Positions 24,962 through 39,344 of a stretch of DNA of 64,000 bases are shown here, piece after piece. The DNA lies in the sequence record NC_052658.1; one strand, given 5' to 3'. The translations under genes and the position numbers were made by a program. The stretch's first letter is position 1, and the number at the start of each line of letters is the position of its first letter. The stretch comes from Escherichia phage nepoznato. The notes below the pieces were generated by a model, which was not told where the DNA came from, made no database searches, and saw nothing but the letters and a program-made list of their open reading frames with translations.

Positions 24962-25843
24962 ATGAAAGATTTGTACCAAGATGTTTTTTCTTTTTTAGAT
25001 CGCACTTCAGAAACATACACTAGAGAGAATGCAAACAAACCTTCCCACCTTGTTAACACGCACAGGGATCTCTTGGCGGGGATTTTAAGCAAACATATGG
25101 CAATGACACAGATACTGCCAAAAAACTTGTCAGAATGGCATACAGAAGGTTTTGGACATATTCACGACTTGGATTATCTGCTCTCTCCTCTTACAAACTG
25201 TTGTCTTGTTAATTATCAAGATATGTTAGAGAATGGTTTTAAGATCGGTGCTGCACAGATAGAAAAACCAAAATCTATTGGAGTAGCTACTACAGTGCTA
25301 ACTCAAATCATCCAAGCTGTTGCCTCCAGTCAGTATGGAGGTCAGACGTGTGCGCACATTGATAAAGGTCTTAGTCCTTATGTTGAAGCCAGTTTCCTTA
25401 AAAACATGGAGATAACCAAACGTCGCTACGGTTGTTATGCAAGGAAAGAAGCCCTAGAAATGACCGAACAAGATGTATATGACGCTATGCAAACTCTTTT
25501 GTATCAGGTTAACACTTTAATGAGTGTTAATGGACAATCTCCTTTTATTACAATCAGTATGGGTCTGGATACCTCTGTTTTTGGCAGAATGATCACAGCT
25601 AACTATCTTAAAGTGCATAGTAACGGTCTAGGTAAAGATCATGTAACGCCTGTATTCCCTAAAGTTATTTTCTTTTTACAAGAAGGTGTTAACATGAAAC
25701 CTAGTGATCCTAACTACGACCTTAAGCAACAAGCTTTGGCATGTTGTGCTGATCGTATTTATCCAGATTTTATTTCTGTTCCTTTGAACAAAGAAGTTAC
25801 GGGATCAGCAGATGGTACCGTTACGAGTATGGGTAAACTATAA
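24962..25843 (+). CDS. nrdD: Anaerobic ribonucleoside-triphosphate reductase, N-terminal portion
   Basis: Continuity with 26575-27546, which carries the glycyl-radical C-terminus; combined length about 616 aa. Confidence 0.65.
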   Translation: MKDLYQDVFSFLDRTSETYTRENANKPSHLVNTHRDLLAGILSKHMAMTQILPKNLSEWHTEGFGHIHDLDYLLSPLTNCCLVNYQDMLENGFKIGAAQIEKPKSIGVATTVLTQIIQAVASSQYGGQTCAHIDKGLSPYVEASFLKNMEITKRRYGCYARKEALEMTEQDVYDAMQTLLYQVNTLMSVNGQSPFITISMGLDTSVFGRMITANYLKVHSNGLGKDHVTPVFPKVIFFLQEGVNMKPSDPNYDLKQQALACCADRIYPDFISVPLNKEVTGSADGTVTSMGKL

Positions 25844-26574
25844 CTGCTCATGTAAAATCTGCCTAAACGGGGGAACTCTCAACAGAGACAATCCCGTGCT
25901 AAACGTAACAGAACTCCCAACACAGAAGAAGGGGGTACTGATATGAGAAAACAAATTCGTGATTTTGAAGGGTATGAAATTGACGAGCTTGGAAATGTTT
26001 ATTGTACCAGGTATAAGGATGAAAGAATCCTTCGCTCGTGGGAAGAAATAAACACAGGATACCAACTTGTCAGAATACGTAAAAACAAGAAAACTGTTTG
26101 CTTTCGGGTGCACAGACTTGTAGCTGAAGCGTTTTTACCCAATCCAGACAATTTACCTTATGTGAAGCATAAAGGTGACAATAGGAAAGACAACAGTGTA
26201 TACAATCTTGAGTGGGGATCTTGTCCAGACAACACGCAAGAGGGTTACGATAATAACTGTTATGCTTTCTACACAAGGTGTCACAGTGTAAAAGCTACTC
26301 ATAAGGCTACTGGTGAAGTTTTTTACTTTAAAAGTCTGAGATGTTGTGCTGACGCTTTAGGGTTGGACAGAAAAAGAATATCTGCAATCTTAAAACAAGG
26401 AGCACCAAATAATTATGATTATGAGTTCTGTTACGAAATGCCTAACGACTAGCTGTGATGAATGTAGCAGCGTAGGGTGTAAGCCTATGACACCCCAAAT
26501 GGTAGACATGCTTTAAGCATGAAGATATAGTCTGATCTGCATGGTGACATGCAGCAGCACGTAATGGTGCGGGA
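25844..26574 (+). mobile_element. Intervening element splitting nrdD, carrying a homing endonuclease gene; probable group I intron (splice sites not determined)
   Basis: Endonuclease ORF sits between the two nrdD halves. Confidence 0.5.
25943..26452 (+). CDS. HNH homing endonuclease
   Basis: YEIDELGNVY, VHRLVAEAF, KHKGDNRKDNSVYNLEW, C-terminal DNA-binding module. Confidence 0.8.
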   Translation: MRKQIRDFEGYEIDELGNVYCTRYKDERILRSWEEINTGYQLVRIRKNKKTVCFRVHRLVAEAFLPNPDNLPYVKHKGDNRKDNSVYNLEWGSCPDNTQEGYDNNCYAFYTRCHSVKATHKATGEVFYFKSLRCCADALGLDRKRISAILKQGAPNNYDYEFCYEMPND

Positions 26575-27546
26575 GTGGCCTTGCGAGCCACTTTGAACAT
26601 AATGTGTAGAAGTTTCTTGTCATACTATGCAACAGAGCAAGGAGAAAAATATGATGGACGATTCAACCTTGGAGTAGTTTCTATCAACTTGCCTCTGATT
26701 GCTGCGGAAGCGAGAAGTAAAGGAGAATCTTTCACCGATCTTCTTAATAAACATATGGAGATAGCCTACGATGCTCACATGCTACGTGTAAACCGTATCA
26801 GACATACCAAAGCATCTGAAAACCCTATTCTTTTCATGGAAGGGGCTTTAGCGCGTTTAAATGCCAATGATGAAATTGGTGTTTTGTTTGAAGGTGGTTA
26901 TGCTTCTATTAGTATTGGTTATGTAGGTCTTGCCGAAGCTTTGGAAATCCTTTATCCAGAAGAAAAAGATAAAAAGGAACTTGGTAAAAACATTCTGCAA
27001 CATATGAAAGATGTGTGTGCTGTGTTTAAAGAGCGATCTAAGCTGGCATTTAGTCTCTATGGAACTCCAGCAGAATCTTTGTGCTATAAGTTTGCAACAG
27101 CTTTAAATGAAAAATACCCAGGTTTGGTAGAAAGAGACTATCTTACTAACTCTTTTCATCAACCTGTATGGTTGGTAACAAATCCTTTTGAAAAATGGGA
27201 TTATGAAGCAGGTTTTGCACAGATTAGTAATGGTGGTAACATAAGTTATGTCGAAACACCAAACTTAAAGAATAACTTAGAAGCTTTGGAGACTTTAGTA
27301 GACTACGCTTATGAACATATTCACTATTTTGGTATTAATCAGCCCGTGGATCAATGCTTTAAGTGTGGTTTTCATGGAGAATTTAAGGCAACGGCTAAAG
27401 GGTTTGAGTGTCCTGATTGTGGCAACCATGAAGAAGAAACTATTTCTGTAGTTAGACGTGTATCAGGGTATCTTTCTGCTCCTAATTCACGGCCTTATAA
27501 CAAAGGTAAAATGCAGGAAGTTTTGCAAAGGGAGAAACATCTTTGA
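26575..27546 (+). CDS. nrdD: Anaerobic ribonucleoside-triphosphate reductase, C-terminal portion (true exon start uncertain)
   Basis: CxxC...CxxC zinc site and glycyl-radical motif RVSGYL. Confidence 0.75.
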   Translation: MALRATLNIMCRSFLSYYATEQGEKYDGRFNLGVVSINLPLIAAEARSKGESFTDLLNKHMEIAYDAHMLRVNRIRHTKASENPILFMEGALARLNANDEIGVLFEGGYASISIGYVGLAEALEILYPEEKDKKELGKNILQHMKDVCAVFKERSKLAFSLYGTPAESLCYKFATALNEKYPGLVERDYLTNSFHQPVWLVTNPFEKWDYEAGFAQISNGGNISYVETPNLKNNLEALETLVDYAYEHIHYFGINQPVDQCFKCGFHGEFKATAKGFECPDCGNHEEETISVVRRVSGYLSAPNSRPYNKGKMQEVLQREKHL

Positions 27547-28840: not shown

Positions 28841-29497
28841 ATGACTATTAAACATATCTCTTTTGATGTATGGAACACACTGATCACAGCAAACTCCAAT
28901 TACGCAGACATGCGAGCCTGGACTATCGCAAAATATGGAGATATTACGGAAGTGGAAGCAAGAGCAGCTTATAAGAAGATCAAAAAGGAACTGGATAATG
29001 CAGCACTTCAAGGCAAAGCCGAGTGTGCAGCATACGCCTGGGAAAGACTTGGTTCTGAACTTGGGATAACACCTTGGAAGTCTGCAAAGCTTCGTTTCGA
29101 GTGTGAACAGTGGTTCCTTAAGTTTCCACCACACGTAGCCGTGGATCTGCCGATGTACTTGCTGTATCTTTCGGGACGTTATGATTTGAGTATTAAGAGC
29201 AATACCAACTTTATATCAGGGGATATCCTGCGTCGTGCTTGTAAGTTTGATAGTTGGAATTGTTTTGAGTTCACCCATTTCTCGGATGAAGCTTTACTTT
29301 GTAAACCAGATCCGCGATTCTTTGCTCGCACGCTCACATATTCTCCGATCCCTCTGTTAGGGCACGAAGTATTGCACGTAGGCGATAGTGAAGAATATGA
29401 TGGAAAATGTGTTGACTTAGGATTTAACTTCTGTCATATTAAGAACCCTAACGACTTACTAGAGAAACTTAAAAGAGGAGAAATTGTAAATGCGTAA
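28841..29497 (+). CDS. HAD-superfamily hydrolase-like protein
   Basis: N-terminal FDVWNTL resembles HAD motif I variant. Confidence 0.4.
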   Translation: MTIKHISFDVWNTLITANSNYADMRAWTIAKYGDITEVEARAAYKKIKKELDNAALQGKAECAAYAWERLGSELGITPWKSAKLRFECEQWFLKFPPHVAVDLPMYLLYLSGRYDLSIKSNTNFISGDILRRACKFDSWNCFEFTHFSDEALLCKPDPRFFARTLTYSPIPLLGHEVLHVGDSEEYDGKCVDLGFNFCHIKNPNDLLEKLKRGEIVNA

Positions 29498-30317
29498 TCA
29501 AACTCAAATTTTTGCAAATAAATTTGATGACCTGGAAACTGCTACTTTTGATATCCAAGATTATTCAAAATTGAAATTTGGTAGTAACCAAGCCGCGCGT
29601 CGTATGGGTAAAGAATTGGCACTTCAGTTTTTTGCTCAAGTGGCAATGAAACATATTGGGGAACAATTTGTTATCATTCCTTCTCCTTACAACCATGTGC
29701 ATAATGCTGCAACAATGATGACAGATCATTTTATTAATTACTTTAACATGTTGCAATCACAATATAATCAAGGTCGTTCAGCAGAACTGGACATTATTCA
29801 TCGTAAAGTTAGCTATATCAACGATTATGGTTTCTTGGATAAAGCTAGTCGTAAGAAACTTATTGATGGGGATACATTCTACTGCAACAAAGAATTCTGG
29901 GGTGATAAGAAGCTTGTATTCATTGATGATGTAAATATCACTGGAACGCATGAAGACAAACTGATTGAGATTCTTGATGAAAATCAAGTTAAAAATGATG
30001 TTTACTTCCTGTATTTTGCAAAATATGAAGGTAATCAAGCAGATACCGAAGCTAAACTGAATTTTAACTACATTAATACACCAGAAGCGTTTGTTAAAAT
30101 GATTAATGAAGAACGTGATGCACAGTGTCTTGTTCGTCCTATTAAATATCTTATGGGCCAAAATCATGAAGACTTCAAAATCATTCTTAGCCAATTGCCA
30201 CACTACTATGTAGAGCAACTTTTCTTCGGCTGTTTAGCTGAAGGCTACAATCGAATTGCAAAGTATACTGAAAACTTTGAATTCTTGGATCGTTACACAA
30301 AACAACACATTCTGTAA
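29490..30317 (+). CDS. Type I phosphoribosyltransferase (PRTase) fold protein
   Basis: PRPP-binding motif LVFIDDVNITGT. Confidence 0.6.
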   Translation: MRNQTQIFANKFDDLETATFDIQDYSKLKFGSNQAARRMGKELALQFFAQVAMKHIGEQFVIIPSPYNHVHNAATMMTDHFINYFNMLQSQYNQGRSAELDIIHRKVSYINDYGFLDKASRKKLIDGDTFYCNKEFWGDKKLVFIDDVNITGTHEDKLIEILDENQVKNDVYFLYFAKYEGNQADTEAKLNFNYINTPEAFVKMINEERDAQCLVRPIKYLMGQNHEDFKIILSQLPHYYVEQLFFGCLAEGYNRIAKYTENFEFLDRYTKQHIL

Positions 30318-30331
30318 TAAGGAGCTAAAAA

Positions 30332-30805
30332 ATGCTTAAAATGAAAACAGGTAATCTTATTGATGCCGCTAAAGCAGGTGAAGTAACTGTTATTGCTCAT
30401 TGTTGCAATTGTATGTGTAATATGGGGGCAGGAATTGCTCCGCAAATTAAACGAGCATTCCCTTATGCATATGCGGCGGATTTAGACACAATGGCTGGTG
30501 ATCAGAGTAAGTTAGGTTCTTTTAGTTTAGGGGTGCCAGACGAACAATCAGACCCTTTGGTATATAATCTATACGGGCAATACCGTTACGGATATAATGC
30601 TAAAGGTCGTCAGTTGGACTATGATGCCCTATACGATGCACTAATAGCTATGGCTAATGATTTGCTTCTCCGTGACCAAAAATGTAAGATCGGTTTACCT
30701 ATGATTGGAGCGGGACATGCCGGAGGTAATTGGGCTATCATCCAAGTGATGATTGAAGAAACTTTAGTAAAAACAGGTCACGATGTGACTATTTATAAAC
30801 TTTAA
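30332..30805 (+). CDS. Macro domain protein (ADP-ribose binding/hydrolase family)
   Basis: Gly-rich blocks IAHCCNCMCNMGAGIA and LPMIGAGHAGG. Confidence 0.55.
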   Translation: MLKMKTGNLIDAAKAGEVTVIAHCCNCMCNMGAGIAPQIKRAFPYAYAADLDTMAGDQSKLGSFSLGVPDEQSDPLVYNLYGQYRYGYNAKGRQLDYDALYDALIAMANDLLLRDQKCKIGLPMIGAGHAGGNWAIIQVMIEETLVKTGHDVTIYKL

Positions 30806-31118: not shown

Positions 31119-32093
31119 ATGCAACTCGGTTTCCCAATTATTGATGTAGTTGTTTTAGTTGGTATTTTGGCATTGTCTATTGGTATCGATTTCTTTGGTC
31201 ATAAAGAGAATAAAGAAATTGGAATTAAATCTGCTTTGCTTTGGTCTATTTTTTGGATTGCTTTAGCTTTAGGATATTACGCATTCATTTGGGTAGAACA
31301 TGGTAAAGAGTTTGCCGCGCTTTTCCTAAGTGGCTATGTGTTGGAAAAGAGTCTTTCTGTAGATAACCTGATGGTGTTCATGGCAATTTTTGCAAGCTTT
31401 GGAATTAAGAGCACACATCTCCAACATAAGATTTTACTTTGGGGGATTGCAGGAGCCATTGTCTTCCGAGGTATTTTTGTTGCAGCAGGCACCGCTTTGT
31501 TTAACCTTCATTGGTCGGTACAAGTGTTGTTCGGTTTGATTGTAGCTTGGTCTGCCGTAGCTATCATCAAAGGTGGTGACGAAGAAGAGGATATTGATTA
31601 CTCTAAGCATTGGGCTGTTCGTTTAGTAGGTAAAGTTCTGCCTGTGCACAATGCACTGGATGGTGAAAAGTTCATTACCATTAAGAATGGTATTAAATAT
31701 GCAACTCCTGCTCTTCTTTGTGTGTTTGTTATTGAGCTTACAGATATTGTCTTCTCTTTTGATTCAGTTCCGGCTGTGATCGGTGTGACACAAGAACCTC
31801 TGCTGGTTTATTCTGCAATGCTGATGGCTGTTCTTGGTTTACGTGCGCTTTTCTTTGTGTTAAGTGTAGCTGTGAAATATCTGGTTCACTTAGAGAAAGC
31901 TGTTGCTGTGGTTCTGGTGTTTGTTGGTGTTAAACTTATGTATCACCCGTTCGGTGAAACACTTCATGCCAAGTGGTCATTCCTCCCGCATGATATTTCC
32001 CCTAACGTAAGTCTGATGATTGTTCTAGGCACATTAGCTCTTGGTGTTATTGCAAGCTTTATCTTCCCTGAAAAAGAAGAAGCTGCTGTTTAA
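31119..32093 (+). CDS. terC: TerC-family integral membrane protein
   Basis: EKSLSVDNLMVF and ELTDIVFSFDSVPA; multiple TM helices. Confidence 0.75.
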   Translation: MQLGFPIIDVVVLVGILALSIGIDFFGHKENKEIGIKSALLWSIFWIALALGYYAFIWVEHGKEFAALFLSGYVLEKSLSVDNLMVFMAIFASFGIKSTHLQHKILLWGIAGAIVFRGIFVAAGTALFNLHWSVQVLFGLIVAWSAVAIIKGGDEEEDIDYSKHWAVRLVGKVLPVHNALDGEKFITIKNGIKYATPALLCVFVIELTDIVFSFDSVPAVIGVTQEPLLVYSAMLMAVLGLRALFFVLSVAVKYLVHLEKAVAVVLVFVGVKLMYHPFGETLHAKWSFLPHDISPNVSLMIVLGTLALGVIASFIFPEKEEAAV

Positions 32094-33720: not shown

Positions 33721-34311
33721 ATGCATACCGAGAGAGACTTGCAACTCTTGTGGTGGGAAGTGATGCAGGAAATAAAAGAAGATTTTCCTGTTTACTACAA
33801 CATGTTACGTGAAGCAGGATATAAAGCTTGCGTTAGAAACAAAGTGAATAACTCTTTTGGTTGGTGCAATTACCGAGATAAGATTGTTGTTGTAAATTGG
33901 CACTTGCATAAGAACTCCACAAGAGATATGATCGTGGATACAATGAAGCACGAAATTGCTCACGCTATTGATGGTTGTATGGGTAAGTTTAGTAGGCATG
34001 GTGCTCATTGGCAAAAACTGGCAGCAGAATTAGGGGCTAATCCTAAAGCCACTTCCAAAGAGCCGTTGAACCACGAATATAAATATGTTCTTGTTCTGGT
34101 AGATAGGTTTGCGACAAGATGTGTTAGAGGTTATAATCGTAAACCTAATCGCATGTACCCAGGTAAGCAACCTAACATGTGGTTGAAATCAGATAAAGAA
34201 GGAACTGAAGGAAAATTATGGTTGTATAAATGGGATGATTGGGTTAAAGTAGCTAAAGAGTACGGTGTTTCACCATATATAAGAGATGCAGAAGAGGAGA
34301 ATGAAGAATGA
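33721..34311 (+). CDS. SprT-like zinc metallopeptidase domain protein
   Basis: HEIAH (HExxH) in SprT-like context. Confidence 0.55.
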   Translation: MHTERDLQLLWWEVMQEIKEDFPVYYNMLREAGYKACVRNKVNNSFGWCNYRDKIVVVNWHLHKNSTRDMIVDTMKHEIAHAIDGCMGKFSRHGAHWQKLAAELGANPKATSKEPLNHEYKYVLVLVDRFATRCVRGYNRKPNRMYPGKQPNMWLKSDKEGTEGKLWLYKWDDWVKVAKEYGVSPYIRDAEEENEE

Positions 34312-35420
34312 CAAGTCCATTTTTAAAAGCAGCTACTGGTGGTCAGAAGAAGTCTGAAATGAGTGTATTCGCTGCAACAACAGATGCAAGTAAATCTGTA
34401 TTCGCTCCAAGTGTGTTAGATGCCAGTCCTGTTTATGCACCAGCAGCACCGCAAGAAGTTCCAGTTTTGCCTGCTATGACCCGACAAGAGATCGAAGAGA
34501 TTGGGGCAGAGGCAGGAACAACCTTGCGTTCCTTGAATGCCGAGGTATTAAAACATCAACGTAGTAATCAAGGCGATCAGATGAGTGAACGACTCACAGC
34601 TTTGATTAAACAGGCAAAACAACTTGATCCAAATTCTATTAAACAAAGCAAGGGTATTACTAAACTCATTAAAAAAGTTATGGGTATGAAAGAAGACCTG
34701 TTCGGGGAGTTTGATAATGTTAATAACCGTATTGAAGAGTTGGTAAAGAACCTTCAAATGGATATTCGCAAAGAAGAAGATTCCTTGGTATATCTTGAAA
34801 AGCTACATCAAGCTATTGGACAATATGCTGCAAGTTTGAACCGAGATATGCAGCTTCTAACAGCAACCTATGAAAAAGAAGAACAAGCTTTGGCTGCTCT
34901 TCCAGAAGATGCAGTAGAACAGCGACAAGTGATCCGAGATACTTTGGATCTTCTGGAGATTCGTATTGCAGATTTAAAAGCATTGCGCCTACTGTGTGTC
35001 CAAATGGGACCGCGTGTACAAGGTATGCAAAAAGTTTCTGCAAGCTTAATGCGATCTGCGCGTAACATAGTAAATAATGTTATTCCTGCTTACTCTGCTA
35101 ACTTCTCAATGTATATCGAGAGTTTACGTCAAATGAAAGCAGCAGAGACGCAGAATAACGTTCTTGATGAATTTAACCTGGCAATTAAACTGGGTAGCGA
35201 TCTTGCCACACAGAATCAGATCGAAGCAGCAGCACTGGCTAACCGTCAAGTGTTGGATATTGAAACTCTGCGTCACGATCAGGAAAACTTGGTTAAGATG
35301 TTGGAAGAAACTAACCGCATCAATACGGAAGCCCGTGCTGCTCGTGTTGATTATATTAATGAAGTTCAATCTCTGGAAGACGGGATGGTAGCTGCTGTGA
35401 AACGAGGGCTTGGTAAATGA
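34308..35420 (+). CDS. telA: TelA-like (toxic anion resistance family) protein
   Basis: N-terminal GDQMSERLTALIKQAKQLDPN resembles the TelA/YaaN region; coiled-coil rich; Ter context. Confidence 0.55.
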   Translation: MTSPFLKAATGGQKKSEMSVFAATTDASKSVFAPSVLDASPVYAPAAPQEVPVLPAMTRQEIEEIGAEAGTTLRSLNAEVLKHQRSNQGDQMSERLTALIKQAKQLDPNSIKQSKGITKLIKKVMGMKEDLFGEFDNVNNRIEELVKNLQMDIRKEEDSLVYLEKLHQAIGQYAASLNRDMQLLTATYEKEEQALAALPEDAVEQRQVIRDTLDLLEIRIADLKALRLLCVQMGPRVQGMQKVSASLMRSARNIVNNVIPAYSANFSMYIESLRQMKAAETQNNVLDEFNLAIKLGSDLATQNQIEAAALANRQVLDIETLRHDQENLVKMLEETNRINTEARAARVDYINEVQSLEDGMVAAVKRGLGK

Positions 35421-35787: not shown

Positions 35788-35983
35788 CTACGATAACGAT
35801 CCTAATATTATCCAGTTAACCCGACAAGAACTGATCACAATCATTGAAGATGCTTTTATTGATGGTTGGAATACACAAGATAATGATTGGGGTGGACCCG
35901 AAGCTTTTCTGGAACATCATAAAACGTATGGAGACTTTTGTGAAACCACTGTAGCTCTTGATAATCTGAAGGAGGGTTTGTAA
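35780..35983 (+). CDS. Hypothetical protein (67 aa)
   Basis: RBS GAGGAGGAAG. Confidence 0.55.
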   Translation: MFNYDNDPNIIQLTRQELITIIEDAFIDGWNTQDNDWGGPEAFLEHHKTYGDFCETTVALDNLKEGL

Positions 35984-36543
35984 TGGGTTGTTTTAGTTTT
36001 TTGTGTAAGGAATCTGGAAAAGCTGCCCTTTCTACTTCTTTCGACGGATCACCTTGTTATCTCTTTCTTTTGAAGGACGGTGTTGTTATTGAAGAGATGT
36101 ATGGCAACTATGATAGTTATGGTTGTGTTTTCTCTGGAAAGGAGGATGAAAATGGCGTTCGTGAACGGTTCGAATGGGCTATGGATTGGGGTAAGGTTTG
36201 TGATTTAATGCATTCCTCAAATCCAAGGGACGGTATTGCTATGGTGCTGGAAGAGTACTTTACAGGTGAAATCCCTACAGAACAATCTGACGGAGATCCT
36301 AATCAAGGTTGGGGTGATGGTGAAGAAGATCCAGATTGTTTTTTCAGCACAGAAAAGAATAAGTTTAAACGTGTTGACAACCCTTATCACAAAGTGCATA
36401 ATACTCTCATTGAAACAGAAGATGACAAGATGGAAATTGAAGAAGATCCTCTTGTAACACTTCCTATAAGTGAGTTACAAAAGATCACTAAGGAAGCTTA
36501 CGATTTGGGCTTCAAAATTGGTAGAGGAGGTATGCGTGTTTAG
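35983..36543 (+). CDS. Hypothetical protein (186 aa), acidic
   Basis: ORF. Confidence 0.55.
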   Translation: MGCFSFLCKESGKAALSTSFDGSPCYLFLLKDGVVIEEMYGNYDSYGCVFSGKEDENGVRERFEWAMDWGKVCDLMHSSNPRDGIAMVLEEYFTGEIPTEQSDGDPNQGWGDGEEDPDCFFSTEKNKFKRVDNPYHKVHNTLIETEDDKMEIEEDPLVTLPISELQKITKEAYDLGFKIGRGGMRV

Positions 36544-36814
36544 ATTCAATATTCAAGAAGAAAAGTGTCAGGATTTACCTATTGCTTTCGAAGATCTTGG
36601 CATAGGGGCCACATTCATGTATTATGATGCCTATGAAGACGCAGGGTTGGATACATACCGTAACTTGGTGTTCATTAAAAATTCCACAAACAGTGCGATC
36701 TGTATTAATGGATCACTAGCACAACGAGGCTATACTCATTGCATCCCGCCAGATACAAATATGGTGGAAGTAGATTTAGAAGTTACCAACATTACACTTA
36801 AGAAGGAGAAATAA
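36536..36814 (+). CDS. Small protein, paralog of 37836-38105; probable GTG start
   Basis: RBS AGGAGG 5 nt before GTG; shared F-I-E...DL-G-TF-Y...E-GLD...VT-ITLK pattern. Confidence 0.45.
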   Translation: MFRFNIQEEKCQDLPIAFEDLGIGATFMYYDAYEDAGLDTYRNLVFIKNSTNSAICINGSLAQRGYTHCIPPDTNMVEVDLEVTNITLKKEK

Positions 36815-36815
36815 T

Positions 36816-37610
36816 ATGTCCGAGAAAATCAGCCTGAAAAAACGTCAAGAAAACCTTGCTTTCTCTCTGAAAAAGAATAAGAACCTGAATGAAGGTAAGA
36901 TTGTTCTTCGTGTAGCATGTGCTCTAGATATTTCTGGTAGTATGCATGGTCTATATTCTAGTGGGGTAGTGAGTGATTTTGTAGGTAAACTGCTTCCTTT
37001 TGGTATGCTGTTCGACGATAATCAACAAATTGATATGTGGGCCTTCAATACGAGTTCCCAAGAGCTTACTCCAGCAACAGCAGATGTTTACGATGACTAT
37101 GTTGGTAAATGTATGCGTAATGTTCGTATCGGAGGTGGAACAAATTACGCCCCTGTAATGGCGGATATCTACGATGAGTATTTTGGCACTGTTACTAAAT
37201 ATATTACCACTAAACAAGTGGTACAAGAGGAGGCTCCAAAGAAAGGCTTCTTTAATCGTCTGCTTGGTAAAACTGAAACAGTGTCTGTAGAGCGTGAAAA
37301 AGTTGTAGCTGTATCTGAACCAGGTGCTGACGTTACCCCTGGTGTTGTATTCTTCCAGACGGATGGTGAGAATGGTGATCCTAGTGCTGTTCGTCGTCTT
37401 ATCGAAGAGAATAAGAATAAACCTATTTATTGGTTCATGGTTGGCGTTGGTAATGAGAAGTTCGGCTTCCTGAAAGAACTGGCAAATGCTTATGATAATG
37501 TTGGTTTTATTGGCATTAAAGATTTAGACTTGACAGATTCAGAGCTTTATGACAAACTCTTATCTGAAGAGTTCGGAGAGTGGGTTGTTAAAGTAGGTGC
37601 TAAAAAATGA
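36816..37610 (+). CDS. von Willebrand factor A domain protein (TerY-like)
   Basis: MIDAS motifs DISGSM, GGTNYA, TDGENGD; N-terminal ISLKK as in TerD. Confidence 0.65.
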   Translation: MSEKISLKKRQENLAFSLKKNKNLNEGKIVLRVACALDISGSMHGLYSSGVVSDFVGKLLPFGMLFDDNQQIDMWAFNTSSQELTPATADVYDDYVGKCMRNVRIGGGTNYAPVMADIYDEYFGTVTKYITTKQVVQEEAPKKGFFNRLLGKTETVSVEREKVVAVSEPGADVTPGVVFFQTDGENGDPSAVRRLIEENKNKPIYWFMVGVGNEKFGFLKELANAYDNVGFIGIKDLDLTDSELYDKLLSEEFGEWVVKVGAKK

Positions 37611-37855
37611 TCGACGAGCTTGCCTCTCAAGTCATAGAAAATTATTGGCGCGAGAGAGAAGCTTTCATTATGCGCAGTCTCAAAGAGTATTTCATTGGGA
37701 CTGTGCGAATGGAAGATATTGTAAGTAGAGTAGAGATTCATGTATGGCCCGATTATGAAGAATGGGTTGACAAAGAAAATGAAAATGCTATAATTCTTCG
37801 TATATACAAACCGGAGATAACATTAGGAGGAAGAAGTGTTAAACTTCGAAATTGA
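37607..37855 (+). CDS. Hypothetical protein (82 aa)
   Basis: ORF. Confidence 0.5.
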   Translation: MIDELASQVIENYWREREAFIMRSLKEYFIGTVRMEDIVSRVEIHVWPDYEEWVDKENENAIILRIYKPEITLGGRSVKLRN

Positions 37856-38105
37856 TGAGCAAAAAGTAAATAAACGATGCCTTACCATTAAAGATTTGGA
37901 TGTAGGAGATACTTTCGTCTATGAAAATGCATTTGACGAAAATGGTTTAGACCTTAGTGAAATCATTGTTTATTTAAAAGTAGATGATGGGGAAAATGAT
38001 TGTTCTGCTGTAGAACTAAACCATCATGCACAATTAGTATCAATCCAAAACACATCTAAGCTTTTGGAAGTAGAATTGACTGTAACTGGTATTACACTTA
38101 AATAA
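37836..38105 (+). CDS. Small protein, paralog of 36536-36814; GTG start
   Basis: RBS AGGAGGAAG; paralogy. Confidence 0.5.
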   Translation: MLNFEIDEQKVNKRCLTIKDLDVGDTFVYENAFDENGLDLSEIIVYLKVDDGENDCSAVELNHHAQLVSIQNTSKLLEVELTVTGITLK

Positions 38106-38120
38106 TAGAGGAGACAAAAG

Positions 38121-38723
38121 ATGACTGATAAAATTTCCCTGAAAAAAGGCTCTAGCGAAAAAATTTCCCTGAAGAAAGTTGCTCCGGCTCTGAAAGAACT
38201 GCGCCTGGAATTCTCTTGGAAATCTGATTCTAAACTGGATCTGGATGTAAGTGCACTGGTTTGTCGTCACAATGCCGCTGGCAATCCTGAAATGCTGTCT
38301 GCACGTCACCTGGTTTGCTATGCTAACAAGTTTGATCCTGAACGTTCTACCTTCGCTGGTGACGATGTTCGTGATGGAACTGGCAGCATGGAGCAGATTG
38401 ATATTACTCTGGCTAAAATCTCTCCTGATGCACAAGAGATTGCCTTTGTTCTGACCATTGATGATGATACAGGTCTGAAACGTTTTGGTCATGCTTCTGA
38501 AGGTATGCTTAAAATCTTTGACTCCGAGCGCAATGTGGAAATTCTGGATTTTGACTTCCTGGCTCCTGAAGTAGCTGGCAACACAATCTGCCACGTGGCT
38601 TCCTTGGTTCGTGAAGATGGGGAATGGAAGCTGAAAGCATATGGTGTAGGTAAAGCTGGTCTGGATATTTGTGATGTGGTCATGGCCTTCGGTGGTAAAA
38701 AAGAATGGTATGAATGTCCATAA
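38121..38723 (+). CDS. terD: TerD-family protein
   Basis: Repeated KISLKK N-terminus; GEWKLKAYGVGKAGLD as in E. coli TerD GEWKFRAVGQGYAGGL. Confidence 0.85.
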   Translation: MTDKISLKKGSSEKISLKKVAPALKELRLEFSWKSDSKLDLDVSALVCRHNAAGNPEMLSARHLVCYANKFDPERSTFAGDDVRDGTGSMEQIDITLAKISPDAQEIAFVLTIDDDTGLKRFGHASEGMLKIFDSERNVEILDFDFLAPEVAGNTICHVASLVREDGEWKLKAYGVGKAGLDICDVVMAFGGKKEWYECP

Positions 38724-38741
38724 TAATTAACAAATGATTTT

Positions 38742-38761
38742 GAGGGGGAGAAATCCCCCTC
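38742..38761 (+). terminator. Hairpin GAGGGGGA-GAAA-TCCCCCTC after terD
   Basis: Direct reading; T-run weak. Confidence 0.45.
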
Positions 38762-38790
38762 TTGCAATAAAGCCTCTATCGTGTTATACT
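38762..38790 (+). promoter_or_regulatory. Promoter TTGCAA-N17-TATACT with TG extension
   Basis: Direct reading. Confidence 0.5.
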
Positions 38791-38822
38791 AGAAATTCGT
38801 TAACTTAAAAAGGAGGCAAAAT

Positions 38823-39344
38823 TTGCTGATAAAAAACTTTGTAACAGTTGCGTTACTATCCTTAACTGCTTTTACATTTACACCTGTTGTGGCGAAAGCC
38901 GAAGCTGCAAACGTAAAAACCGCTAAAGTAGTTCACAAATGTACAAAGCAATATAATGATAAAATTCTATTAGCTTGTGCAATTTACGCAGAAGGTCGCG
39001 GTCTGGGTAAAAAAGGAATGAATGCCGTTGGGAATGTGGTAATCAACAGAAGAAATGATACCTACTTCCCTAACACAGTCAGAGGAGTCTTGTTCCAGAA
39101 AGGACAATTCTCATATGCGAAAACTTTTAACGTAACAGAGAAAGATAAGTGGCAGGAAGCAAAAGCAATAGCGGAGCGTTTACTTTATCTAGAGAAACAT
39201 TTTCCTGAATTGCGGTCTGTTTTAGATGTTACTAAAGGTGCTCTATACTTCAAGAAACGGAATATAAAGACACACTGGGAACGTGATATGCGTCTTGTTT
39301 ATCGAGATAAAGTGCATGGTTTCTATCTACCAAAGGGGAGTTAA
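38823..39344 (+). CDS. Secreted SleB-like (Hydrolase_2) cell wall hydrolase; TTG start
   Basis: Signal peptide; block CAIYAEGRG...VGNVVINRR...FPNTV...VLFQKGQF. Confidence 0.65.
   Translation: MLIKNFVTVALLSLTAFTFTPVVAKAEAANVKTAKVVHKCTKQYNDKILLACAIYAEGRGLGKKGMNAVGNVVINRRNDTYFPNTVRGVLFQKGQFSYAKTFNVTEKDKWQEAKAIAERLLYLEKHFPELRSVLDVTKGALYFKKRNIKTHWERDMRLVYRDKVHGFYLPKGS

Follow-up and report, generated by a model that had tools for sequence, protein, structure and literature searches.

A stretch of 64,000 nucleotides of Escherichia phage nepoznato (NC_052658.1; referred to as the window) contains a Ter (tellurite-resistance-type) cluster, and the locus analysed here is the vWA-TerF-like/TerD end of this phage-encoded cluster. 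In it, two small genes, which we call A and B, stand directly ahead of the genes for a vWA-TerF-like protein (hereafter vWA) and a TerD-domain protein (TerD), respectively (Table 1). We found that A and B encode paralogues that share a predicted SH3-like small beta-barrel, and that the small gene alone was duplicated, not a cassette of two genes. On the sequence evidence presented below, the small proteins are best read as an accessory of the phage Ter module that is specific to this lineage and dispensable.

The relationship between the two small proteins, which had been proposed in a preliminary description based on the letters alone, was borne out by pairwise alignment, by membership in the same PHROG and by the same predicted fold. 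BLASTP aligned A (36536-36811) with B (37836-38102) without gaps over 89 positions, 29 of which are identical (33%; 51% positives; 51.6 bits, E = 2e-15). Both are full-length matches to phrog_11278 (A, E = 5.2e-49, residues 1-92 on profile positions 1-92; B, E = 2.6e-45, residues 1-89), and a family hidden Markov model (HMM) made here gave 105.5 bits for A and 100.8 bits for B, recovering exactly these two open reading frames (ORFs) in the window. The AlphaFold2 (AF2) model of A (pLDDT 83.5) consists of five strands and one short helix, preceded by a low-confidence N-terminal tail, and its best match in BFVD is the copy of B from phAPEC8 (TM 0.80/0.82). Both genes start with GTG, 5 nt past a GGAGG-type Shine-Dalgarno sequence, and in alignments all homologues begin at the corresponding position.

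The family to which A and B belong is acidic, with net charges from -2 to -11 (median -5.5). Only M1 and F4 are invariant throughout its alignment, and both sit in the tail that is unstructured in the AF2 model (residues 1-15 of the window's A, pLDDT ~52); from the model, this tail could supply a strand that pairs with a partner. When each of the 30 family members was compared with Pfam at E values up to 1, only scattered chance matches came up. The PHROGs v4 entry phrog_11278 carries neither a function nor a context, and our analysis supplies the neighbourhood and the predicted fold; a weak match to phrog_7832 (E = 8e-4) leads to another entry without an assigned function. The nearest known systems also include the SH3-like small beta-barrel adaptor domains, such as HspQ/YccV, FeoA, the DtxR C-terminal domain, KOW and Tudor. 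In Escherichia phage EF1-1 (PQ571289.1, locus L055), the annotation gives the homologue of A as a shorter ORF, and tblastn recovers it in two pieces, which may reflect a frameshift or a sequencing error. We found no evidence to support the label 'RNA ligase' on the B homologue of EF1-1, or the label 'RNA-binding protein' on the vWA gene of vB_Ec-G1.

The preliminary description had also observed that each small gene immediately precedes a gene whose product opens with KISLKK-type repeats, and this observation stands: the vWA product starts with MSEKISLKKRQENLAFSLKK and the TerD product with MTDKISLKKGSSEKISLKK, both double motifs of this type, and the gaps measure 1 nt (A stop 36812-36814, vWA ATG 36816) and 15 nt (B stop 38103-38105, TerD ATG 38121). 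Its view of the locus as a duplicated two-gene module, on the other hand, survives only in part, since the small genes are indeed paralogous and each is tightly coupled to a Ter gene, but the downstream genes belong to unrelated folds and families. Duplication of a cassette made up of a small gene and an ISLKK-headed gene, with subsequent divergence of the downstream genes into vWA and TerD, would account for the near-identical M-[ST]-[ED]-K-I-S-L-K-K heads of the two products, which BLASTP does align with each other (E = 0.013 and 0.11). However, the similarity between vWA and TerD is confined to the first 20-29 residues, the codons of the heads differ (Ser AGC vs TCC), and the two proteins have different folds and fall into different Pfam families (PF10138 and PF02342). 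Moreover, the heads are family-wide features, vWA-TerF-like and TerD genes are neighbours or fusions in bacteria and in jumbo phages without any small gene, and relatives exist with a single copy and with zero copies of it. The cassette model is thus effectively refuted.

To judge from the alignments of both families, each head is an old, family-wide feature and neither stems from a local duplication. The TerD head is the canonical VSLSKGGNVSLSK segment at the N-terminus of the solved TerD sequence, and forms the N-terminal segment of the TerD domain. The vWA head, a helix over residues 7-20 in AF2, is near-invariant (L7, K9, L18, K20) in 31 vWA-TerF-like proteins, bacterial ones included, and in TerF-type fusions a head of the vWA type stands between the TerD and vWA domains (P0081, P0084 and the Actinobacteria L083-L102). 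The h-x-L-x-K motifs start at residues 5 and 15 of TerD and at residues 5 and 16 of vWA; both N-termini are Lys-rich, each with a net charge of +4 over its first 27 residues.

The first aliphatic residue (I, V or L) of these motifs tends to agree, at the amino-acid level, between the TerD and vWA proteins of one genome (loci L001-L053 and L059-L072). Among 22 non-redundant phage loci, the mean match was 0.85, compared with 0.34 +/- 0.09 for shuffled genome pairing, and was reached in 0 of 20,000 shuffles, a null that ignores the tree on which independent transitions are few. By residue match, the four head column pairs rank 1, 2, 3 and 6 of 29,627 variable inter-protein column pairs, and 1-4 of the 812 pairs of aliphatic variable columns; mutual information does not set them apart from clade-driven columns, and only the same-residue measure does so. 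Stephanstirmvirinae, L030 and L048 have I; L010, L020 and L042 have V; and L012, L028, L033, L034, L040, L052 and L053 have L. All four positions switch together between the sister lineages L008 (I) and L020 (V), L010 (V) and L012 (L), and L028 (L) and L030 (I). The few bacterial pairs agree as well, with MAINLQK and MAINLEK in Gallionellaceae, all I in Accumulibacter and Chitinimonas, and all V in Ruminococcus.

Three candidate causes of the matching heads were rejected. Recent gene conversion is contradicted by the four motif copies, which differ in their codons within a genome. Base composition fails to account for the state, given that L040 and L042 both have a GC content of 0.29 yet show L and V, respectively, and that L030 (GC 0.37) shows I and L028 (GC 0.44) shows L. 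The small protein is not the cause either, as the pattern persists in loci without the small gene. We speculate, though we consider it unlikely, that the heads of TerD and of TerF-type vWA proteins are co-evolving interaction modules that touch each other or a common receptor, with A and B as a phage-specific layer that caps or regulates the Lys-rich heads, A that of vWA and B that of TerD. Contact could, for example, consist of the vWA head mimicking or pairing with the N-terminal hairpin of TerD. If this were true, the head modules would physically couple TerD and vWA even when the two are not fused, and if the co-variation reflects contact it would offer the first sequence-level handle on the TerD-vWA interface.

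The small family is rare and restricted to phages. It forms 22 clusters among 5.8 billion proteins and gave 21 matches among 1.84 billion representatives, all of at most 93 aa except for two marginal, long repetitive proteins. For its genomic context we scanned with HMMs 14 loci retrieved via the small protein, 40 loci from IMG/VR retrieved via vWA and 49 loci from a genome collection, one of the last being a mis-binned phage contig. The window, 14 of the 14 loci retrieved via the small protein and all four IMG/VR loci that carry a small gene have it immediately next to vWA and/or TerD. It was never found away from vWA or TerD genes in the contexts retrieved, the database matches or the HMM scan of the window; no member was present in 48 bacterial vWA-TerF-like loci, and a tblastn search with the distant member P0092 gave no match in isolated phages. 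The longest contigs of the phage clade that bears the family measure 140-155 kb.

TerC-TelA-vWA-TerD-Hydrolase_2 is collinear in all these phages, with vWA and TerD adjacent in many of the scanned loci. Around the invariant vWA-TerD pair, the small gene occurs in 0, 1 or 2 copies and in four layouts, and it alone varies in number and position. The order small-vWA-TerD is seen in phi92 (Justusliebigvirus), Klebsiella phage 05F01, L018 and L023; small-vWA-(81-82 aa)-small-TerD in the window, phiWec190, L004 and L015; vWA-small-TerD in L006, L008/L019, L009, L010 and L011; and vWA-small-small-TerD in L012-L014. No small gene accompanies the vWA-TerD pair of L016 (vWA 69% identical) and L020-L027, or the vWA gene of L017 (65%), whose contig stops right after vWA. 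All jumbo-phage and bacterial loci have vWA without the small gene, and there TerD is adjacent, nearby or not found.

In a neighbour-joining tree of the family, which has no support values and is built on a short protein, the copies in the A slot and in the B slot are sister clades within a family otherwise placed between vWA and TerD. We infer that B retains the older slot between vWA and TerD and that A is a copy relocated upstream of vWA. B would later have been lost in phi92-like and 05F01-like phages, the copies of L012-L014 would have duplicated independently, and in Phapecoctavirus the 82-aa ORF with its putative promoter appears to have been inserted ahead of B. The small gene has kept its neighbourhood through one slot change and no fewer than two duplications, one that gave A and B and one that gave the tandem pair of L012-L014. 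An A-vWA-B-TerD block with a 100% identical vWA is also present on an 18.6-kb contig labelled 'MAG: Proteobacteria bacterium' (L057, JAEZZU010000159.1), most likely a phapecoctavirus contig that was mis-binned into a bacterial genome.

The Shine-Dalgarno sequence of the vWA gene sits within the last codons of A, and the 1-nt gap between the two genes is a spacing that fits translational coupling. B, in turn, is preceded by a perfect sigma-70 consensus, which falls in the 3'-terminal part of the 82-aa ORF and stops 42 nt short of the B start codon. This is the sole perfect TTGACA-N16-TATAAT of the window, with a chance expectation of 0.12 per window and at least one occurrence in 11 of 100 shuffles. 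The perfect consensus is kept at the same position in the two-copy relatives L003 (5229-5256), L004 (5935-5962) and L005 (1020-1047), and phi92 has TTGACT-17-TAAAAT directly upstream of TerD. From these sequences, we infer that B and TerD form their own transcription unit behind a putative sigma-70 promoter. Past the TerD stop, a hairpin with a GAAA loop, which is not followed by a T-run and was not called by a terminator scan, may either lie at the 3' terminus of the B-TerD transcript or make that transcript more stable.

Within this putative unit, codon usage is uneven. The codons of TerD are strongly adapted to E. coli, with CTG at 17 of 19 Leu positions and CGT or CGC at 8 of 8 Arg positions, which suggests very high expression of TerD. 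By contrast, CTG is used for none of the 7 Leu residues of A and none of the 12 of B, and for less than 25% in most neighbouring genes. Because its codon usage is unlike that of TerD, B is probably not a stoichiometric partner, even though the two genes are probably co-transcribed.

How the small proteins might act within the Ter module is a matter on which several readings compete. We give about even odds to the reading in which they are adaptors or regulators that bind vWA and/or TerD, possibly via the basic heads. A phage-restricted family of acidic proteins of ~90 aa with a predicted SH3-like barrel (phrog_11278) has become embedded in the phage Ter cluster, and in this mechanism its members would be dispensable adaptors or regulators, probably present in sub-stoichiometric amounts, A having specialised for vWA and B for TerD. 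The most plausible contact would be made by the acidic barrel, or by the invariant N-terminal M-x-x-F tail, with the Lys-rich N-terminal heads; contact with the heads is proposed because the charges are complementary (-2 to -11 in the small family vs +4 in the heads). A functional link is favoured because the neighbourhood is exclusive, because the copies stayed in it through the duplications and the slot change, and because the spacing is tight. The suggestion of the preliminary description that the small protein is a possible partner or chaperone of the TerD-fold protein fits this exclusive vWA/TerD neighbourhood, but is weakened by the absence of the gene from close relatives, by its fast evolution and by codon usage that does not match that of the highly adapted TerD.

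Several observations weigh against an adaptor, and these same observations speak for A and B being passengers, that is, fast-evolving small acidic phage proteins (for example, for host takeover or anti-defence) that occupy permissive gaps and whose adjacency is inherited synteny, a possibility that we regard as somewhat unlikely. Small acidic ORFans are common in phages. The vWA-TerD pair with both heads persists without the small gene in close relatives (L016 and L020-L027, and, for vWA, L017), the gene having been repeatedly lost, and the small protein is therefore not needed for the core function. The small proteins also diverge much faster than their neighbours in the same genome pairs, being 56% and 50% (A) and 44% and 51% (B) identical between the window and L003 and L004, respectively, compared with 74% and 83% for vWA and 90% and 90% for TerD. 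Their codon usage, as described above, argues against a stoichiometric partner, and the conserved neighbourhood could simply be the inherited synteny of a block that is collinear as a whole in all loci. Against passengers stand the facts that all family members found adjoin vWA or TerD directly, that they did so through two duplications and a slot change, that the spacing is tight enough for translational coupling, and that searches of these ~150-kb genomes and of other phages turned up no copy in any other place. It is quite improbable, in our estimation, that A and B are instead nucleic-acid-binding regulators which tune the translation or transcription of vWA and TerD, in the way that SH3-like barrels of the KOW, Sm and L2 types act on RNA or DNA. 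If the small proteins are unrelated passengers, the locus represents ordinary ORFan turnover in a phage accessory region. In the other readings, the tiny accessory protein that this phage lineage has acquired, duplicated and probably sub-specialised right at the vWA/TerD junction makes the locus a compact and genetically tractable entry point to Ter, with an E. coli phage, 90-aa proteins and natural variants of 0, 1 and 2 copies.

Ter systems, which are common on plasmids and chromosomes as well as in phages, have been associated since the 1970s with resistance to tellurite, colicins and phages. Anantharaman, Iyer and Aravind are said to have described, in 2012, Ter stress-response and tellurite-resistance systems made up of terZABCDEF plus TelA. 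The window resembles the bacterial systems in that TerD, a TerF-type vWA, TelA, TerC, PRTase and a weak HAD-like match occur in one co-directional cluster, but differs from them in being phage-encoded, in having a single TerD and in the presence of a small SH3-like family that is not in the 48 bacterial loci. Likewise, the vWA protein is a full-length match to PF10138, the family of TerF (TerD fused to a C-terminal vWA), and has the same double h-x-L-x-K head, whereas TerD and vWA are here separate polypeptides with the 82-aa ORF, B and a putative promoter between their genes. The cluster matches the 'relatively complete Ter system' that has been described for some phages (PMC7824862), and Ter operons of other virulent and jumbo phages have been discussed as possible superinfection or stress devices (PMC7824862; PMC8386662). 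The literature reports 'four tellurite-resistance related genes' for phapecoctaviruses (ZCKP1, PMC6141743), clusters of terC, terF-vWA, terD and telA for virulent phages (phiKp34, PMC8386662; Jug phages, PMC12880540), and, in the Jug phages, two terD genes that flank a hypothetical gene as well as highly transcribed terD operons (PMC12880540). No discussion of small paralogues, of a B-TerD promoter or of head co-variation was found in the accessible portions of PMC6141743, PMC8386662 and PMC12880540. The Ter cluster of these phages and the existence of the PHROG were thus already known, and what we add is that A and B are paralogues, their predicted fold, their exclusive neighbourhood beside vWA or TerD in varying copy number, a putative promoter ahead of B-TerD and the co-varying heads; no description of these points, and no mention of the small family, was found in a literature search that was incomplete.

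Table 1. Features of the Ter-type cluster and of its vWA/TerD end in the window
Feature	Coordinates	Strand	Details
PRTase_3	29490-30317	+	above gathering threshold
Macro	30332-30805	+	23.0 bits vs cutoff 22
TerC	31119-32093	+	above gathering threshold
SprT-like	33721-34311	+	upstream part of the Ter-type cluster
TelA	34308-35420	+	above gathering threshold
186-aa acidic ORF	35983-36543	+	phrog_14928; net charge -19; 8-nt overlap with start of small A
Small protein A	36536-36814	+	92 aa; GTG start; net charge -6; phrog_11278; predicted SH3-like small beta-barrel
vWA-TerF-like protein	36816-37610	+	264 aa; Pfam PF10138, 130.1 bits (cutoff 29.4); MIDAS D38-x-S40-x-S42, T109, D183
vWA N-terminal head	36825-36875	+	residues 4-20; KISLKKRQENLAFSLKK; double h-x-L-x-K motif
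82-aa ORF	37607-37855	+	phrog_22387; overlaps vWA stop (ATGA) and, by 20 nt, start of B
Putative sigma-70 promoter of B-TerD	37767-37794	+	perfect TTGACA-16 nt-TATAAT; extended -10 TG
Small protein B	37836-38105	+	89 aa; GTG start; net charge -11; phrog_11278; in the vWA-TerD slot also used by more distant relatives
TerD-domain protein	38121-38723	+	200 aa; Pfam PF02342, 98.9 bits (cutoff 25.3), residues 5-179 on profile 3-177 of 187
TerD N-terminal head	38130-38177	+	residues 4-19; KISLKKGSSEKISLKK; aligns with VSLSKGG-NVSLSK, N-terminus of solved TerD
GC-rich hairpin	38742-38761	+	GAGGGGGA-GAAA-TCCCCCTC; 19 nt past TerD stop

The AF2 model of vWA (pLDDT 91) has integrin I and vWA domains, with a Rossmann-like fold and a metal ion-dependent adhesion site (MIDAS), as its Foldseek matches, and the MIDAS is intact, D38, S42, T109 and D183 being invariant and S40 at least 90% conserved in the 31 homologues. 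In the AF2 prediction, the vWA domain also carries an insertion that forms a long beta-arm of two strands (residues 125-169, window 37188-37322), with a conserved KGFFxKLFGK at its tip in which G144 and G151 are at least 90% conserved; shorter homologues are without most of this arm. TerD aligns to the solved beta-sandwich structures 2KXT (E = 1.5e-15) and 3IBZ. At the acidic Ca2+-binding motifs of solved TerD (GDN..G.GDGDDE type), the phage sequence 'agdd.vrdgtgsmeqi' is paired with 'tgdnrtgegdgddesl' of 2KXT, with several acidic ligand positions replaced.

The surrounding genes make up a co-directional cluster on the + strand, which comprises a weak HAD-like match (21.2 bits, below the threshold of 26.4), PRTase_3, Macro, TerC, SprT-like, TelA and several small ORFs, continues with the 186-aa ORF, A, vWA, the 82-aa ORF, B and TerD, and is followed by a cell-wall hydrolase. 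TerD is accompanied by TerC, TelA, a TerF-type vWA and PRTase, all above gathering thresholds, as in a Ter operon; TerB, TerA, TerZ and TerE were not detected among the window products scanned. Along 35983-38723 the successive junctions are an 8-nt overlap, a 1-nt gap, an ATGA overlap, a 20-nt overlap and a 15-nt gap. The 186-aa ORF is also found in phi92 and phiWec190 but is absent from L004, where a DUF7167-like ORF directly precedes A. The 82-aa ORF is restricted to two-copy loci of the Phapecoctavirus type, and was rejected as a third, degenerate paralogue of the small proteins (hhalign probability 0.3%). An Rfam scan of 35900-39000 gave no match.

The window belongs to a Phapecoctavirus, a phAPEC8-like E. 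coli phage, and a 2.4-kb region of the locus shares 98.8-99.3% identity with dozens of genomes of this genus (subfamily Stephanstirmvirinae). Over this region, records named Campylobacter phage B15, Acinetobacter phage vB_AbaM_ABPW7, Klebsiella phage ZCKP1 and 'Dompiswa phage' show 98.8-99% identity to E. coli phapecoctaviruses, which points either to a broad host range or to doubtful host labels. Elsewhere in the window, the anaerobic ribonucleotide reductase gene nrdD is split (24962-27546), with NRDD profile positions 1-263 at 24962-25843 and positions 263-562 at 26575-27546. Between the two parts lie an ORF for an HNH/I-HmuI-like endonuclease (25943-26452) and a match to a group I intron (26315-26554; E = 2.9e-8) whose 39.3 bits are below the gathering score of 50.

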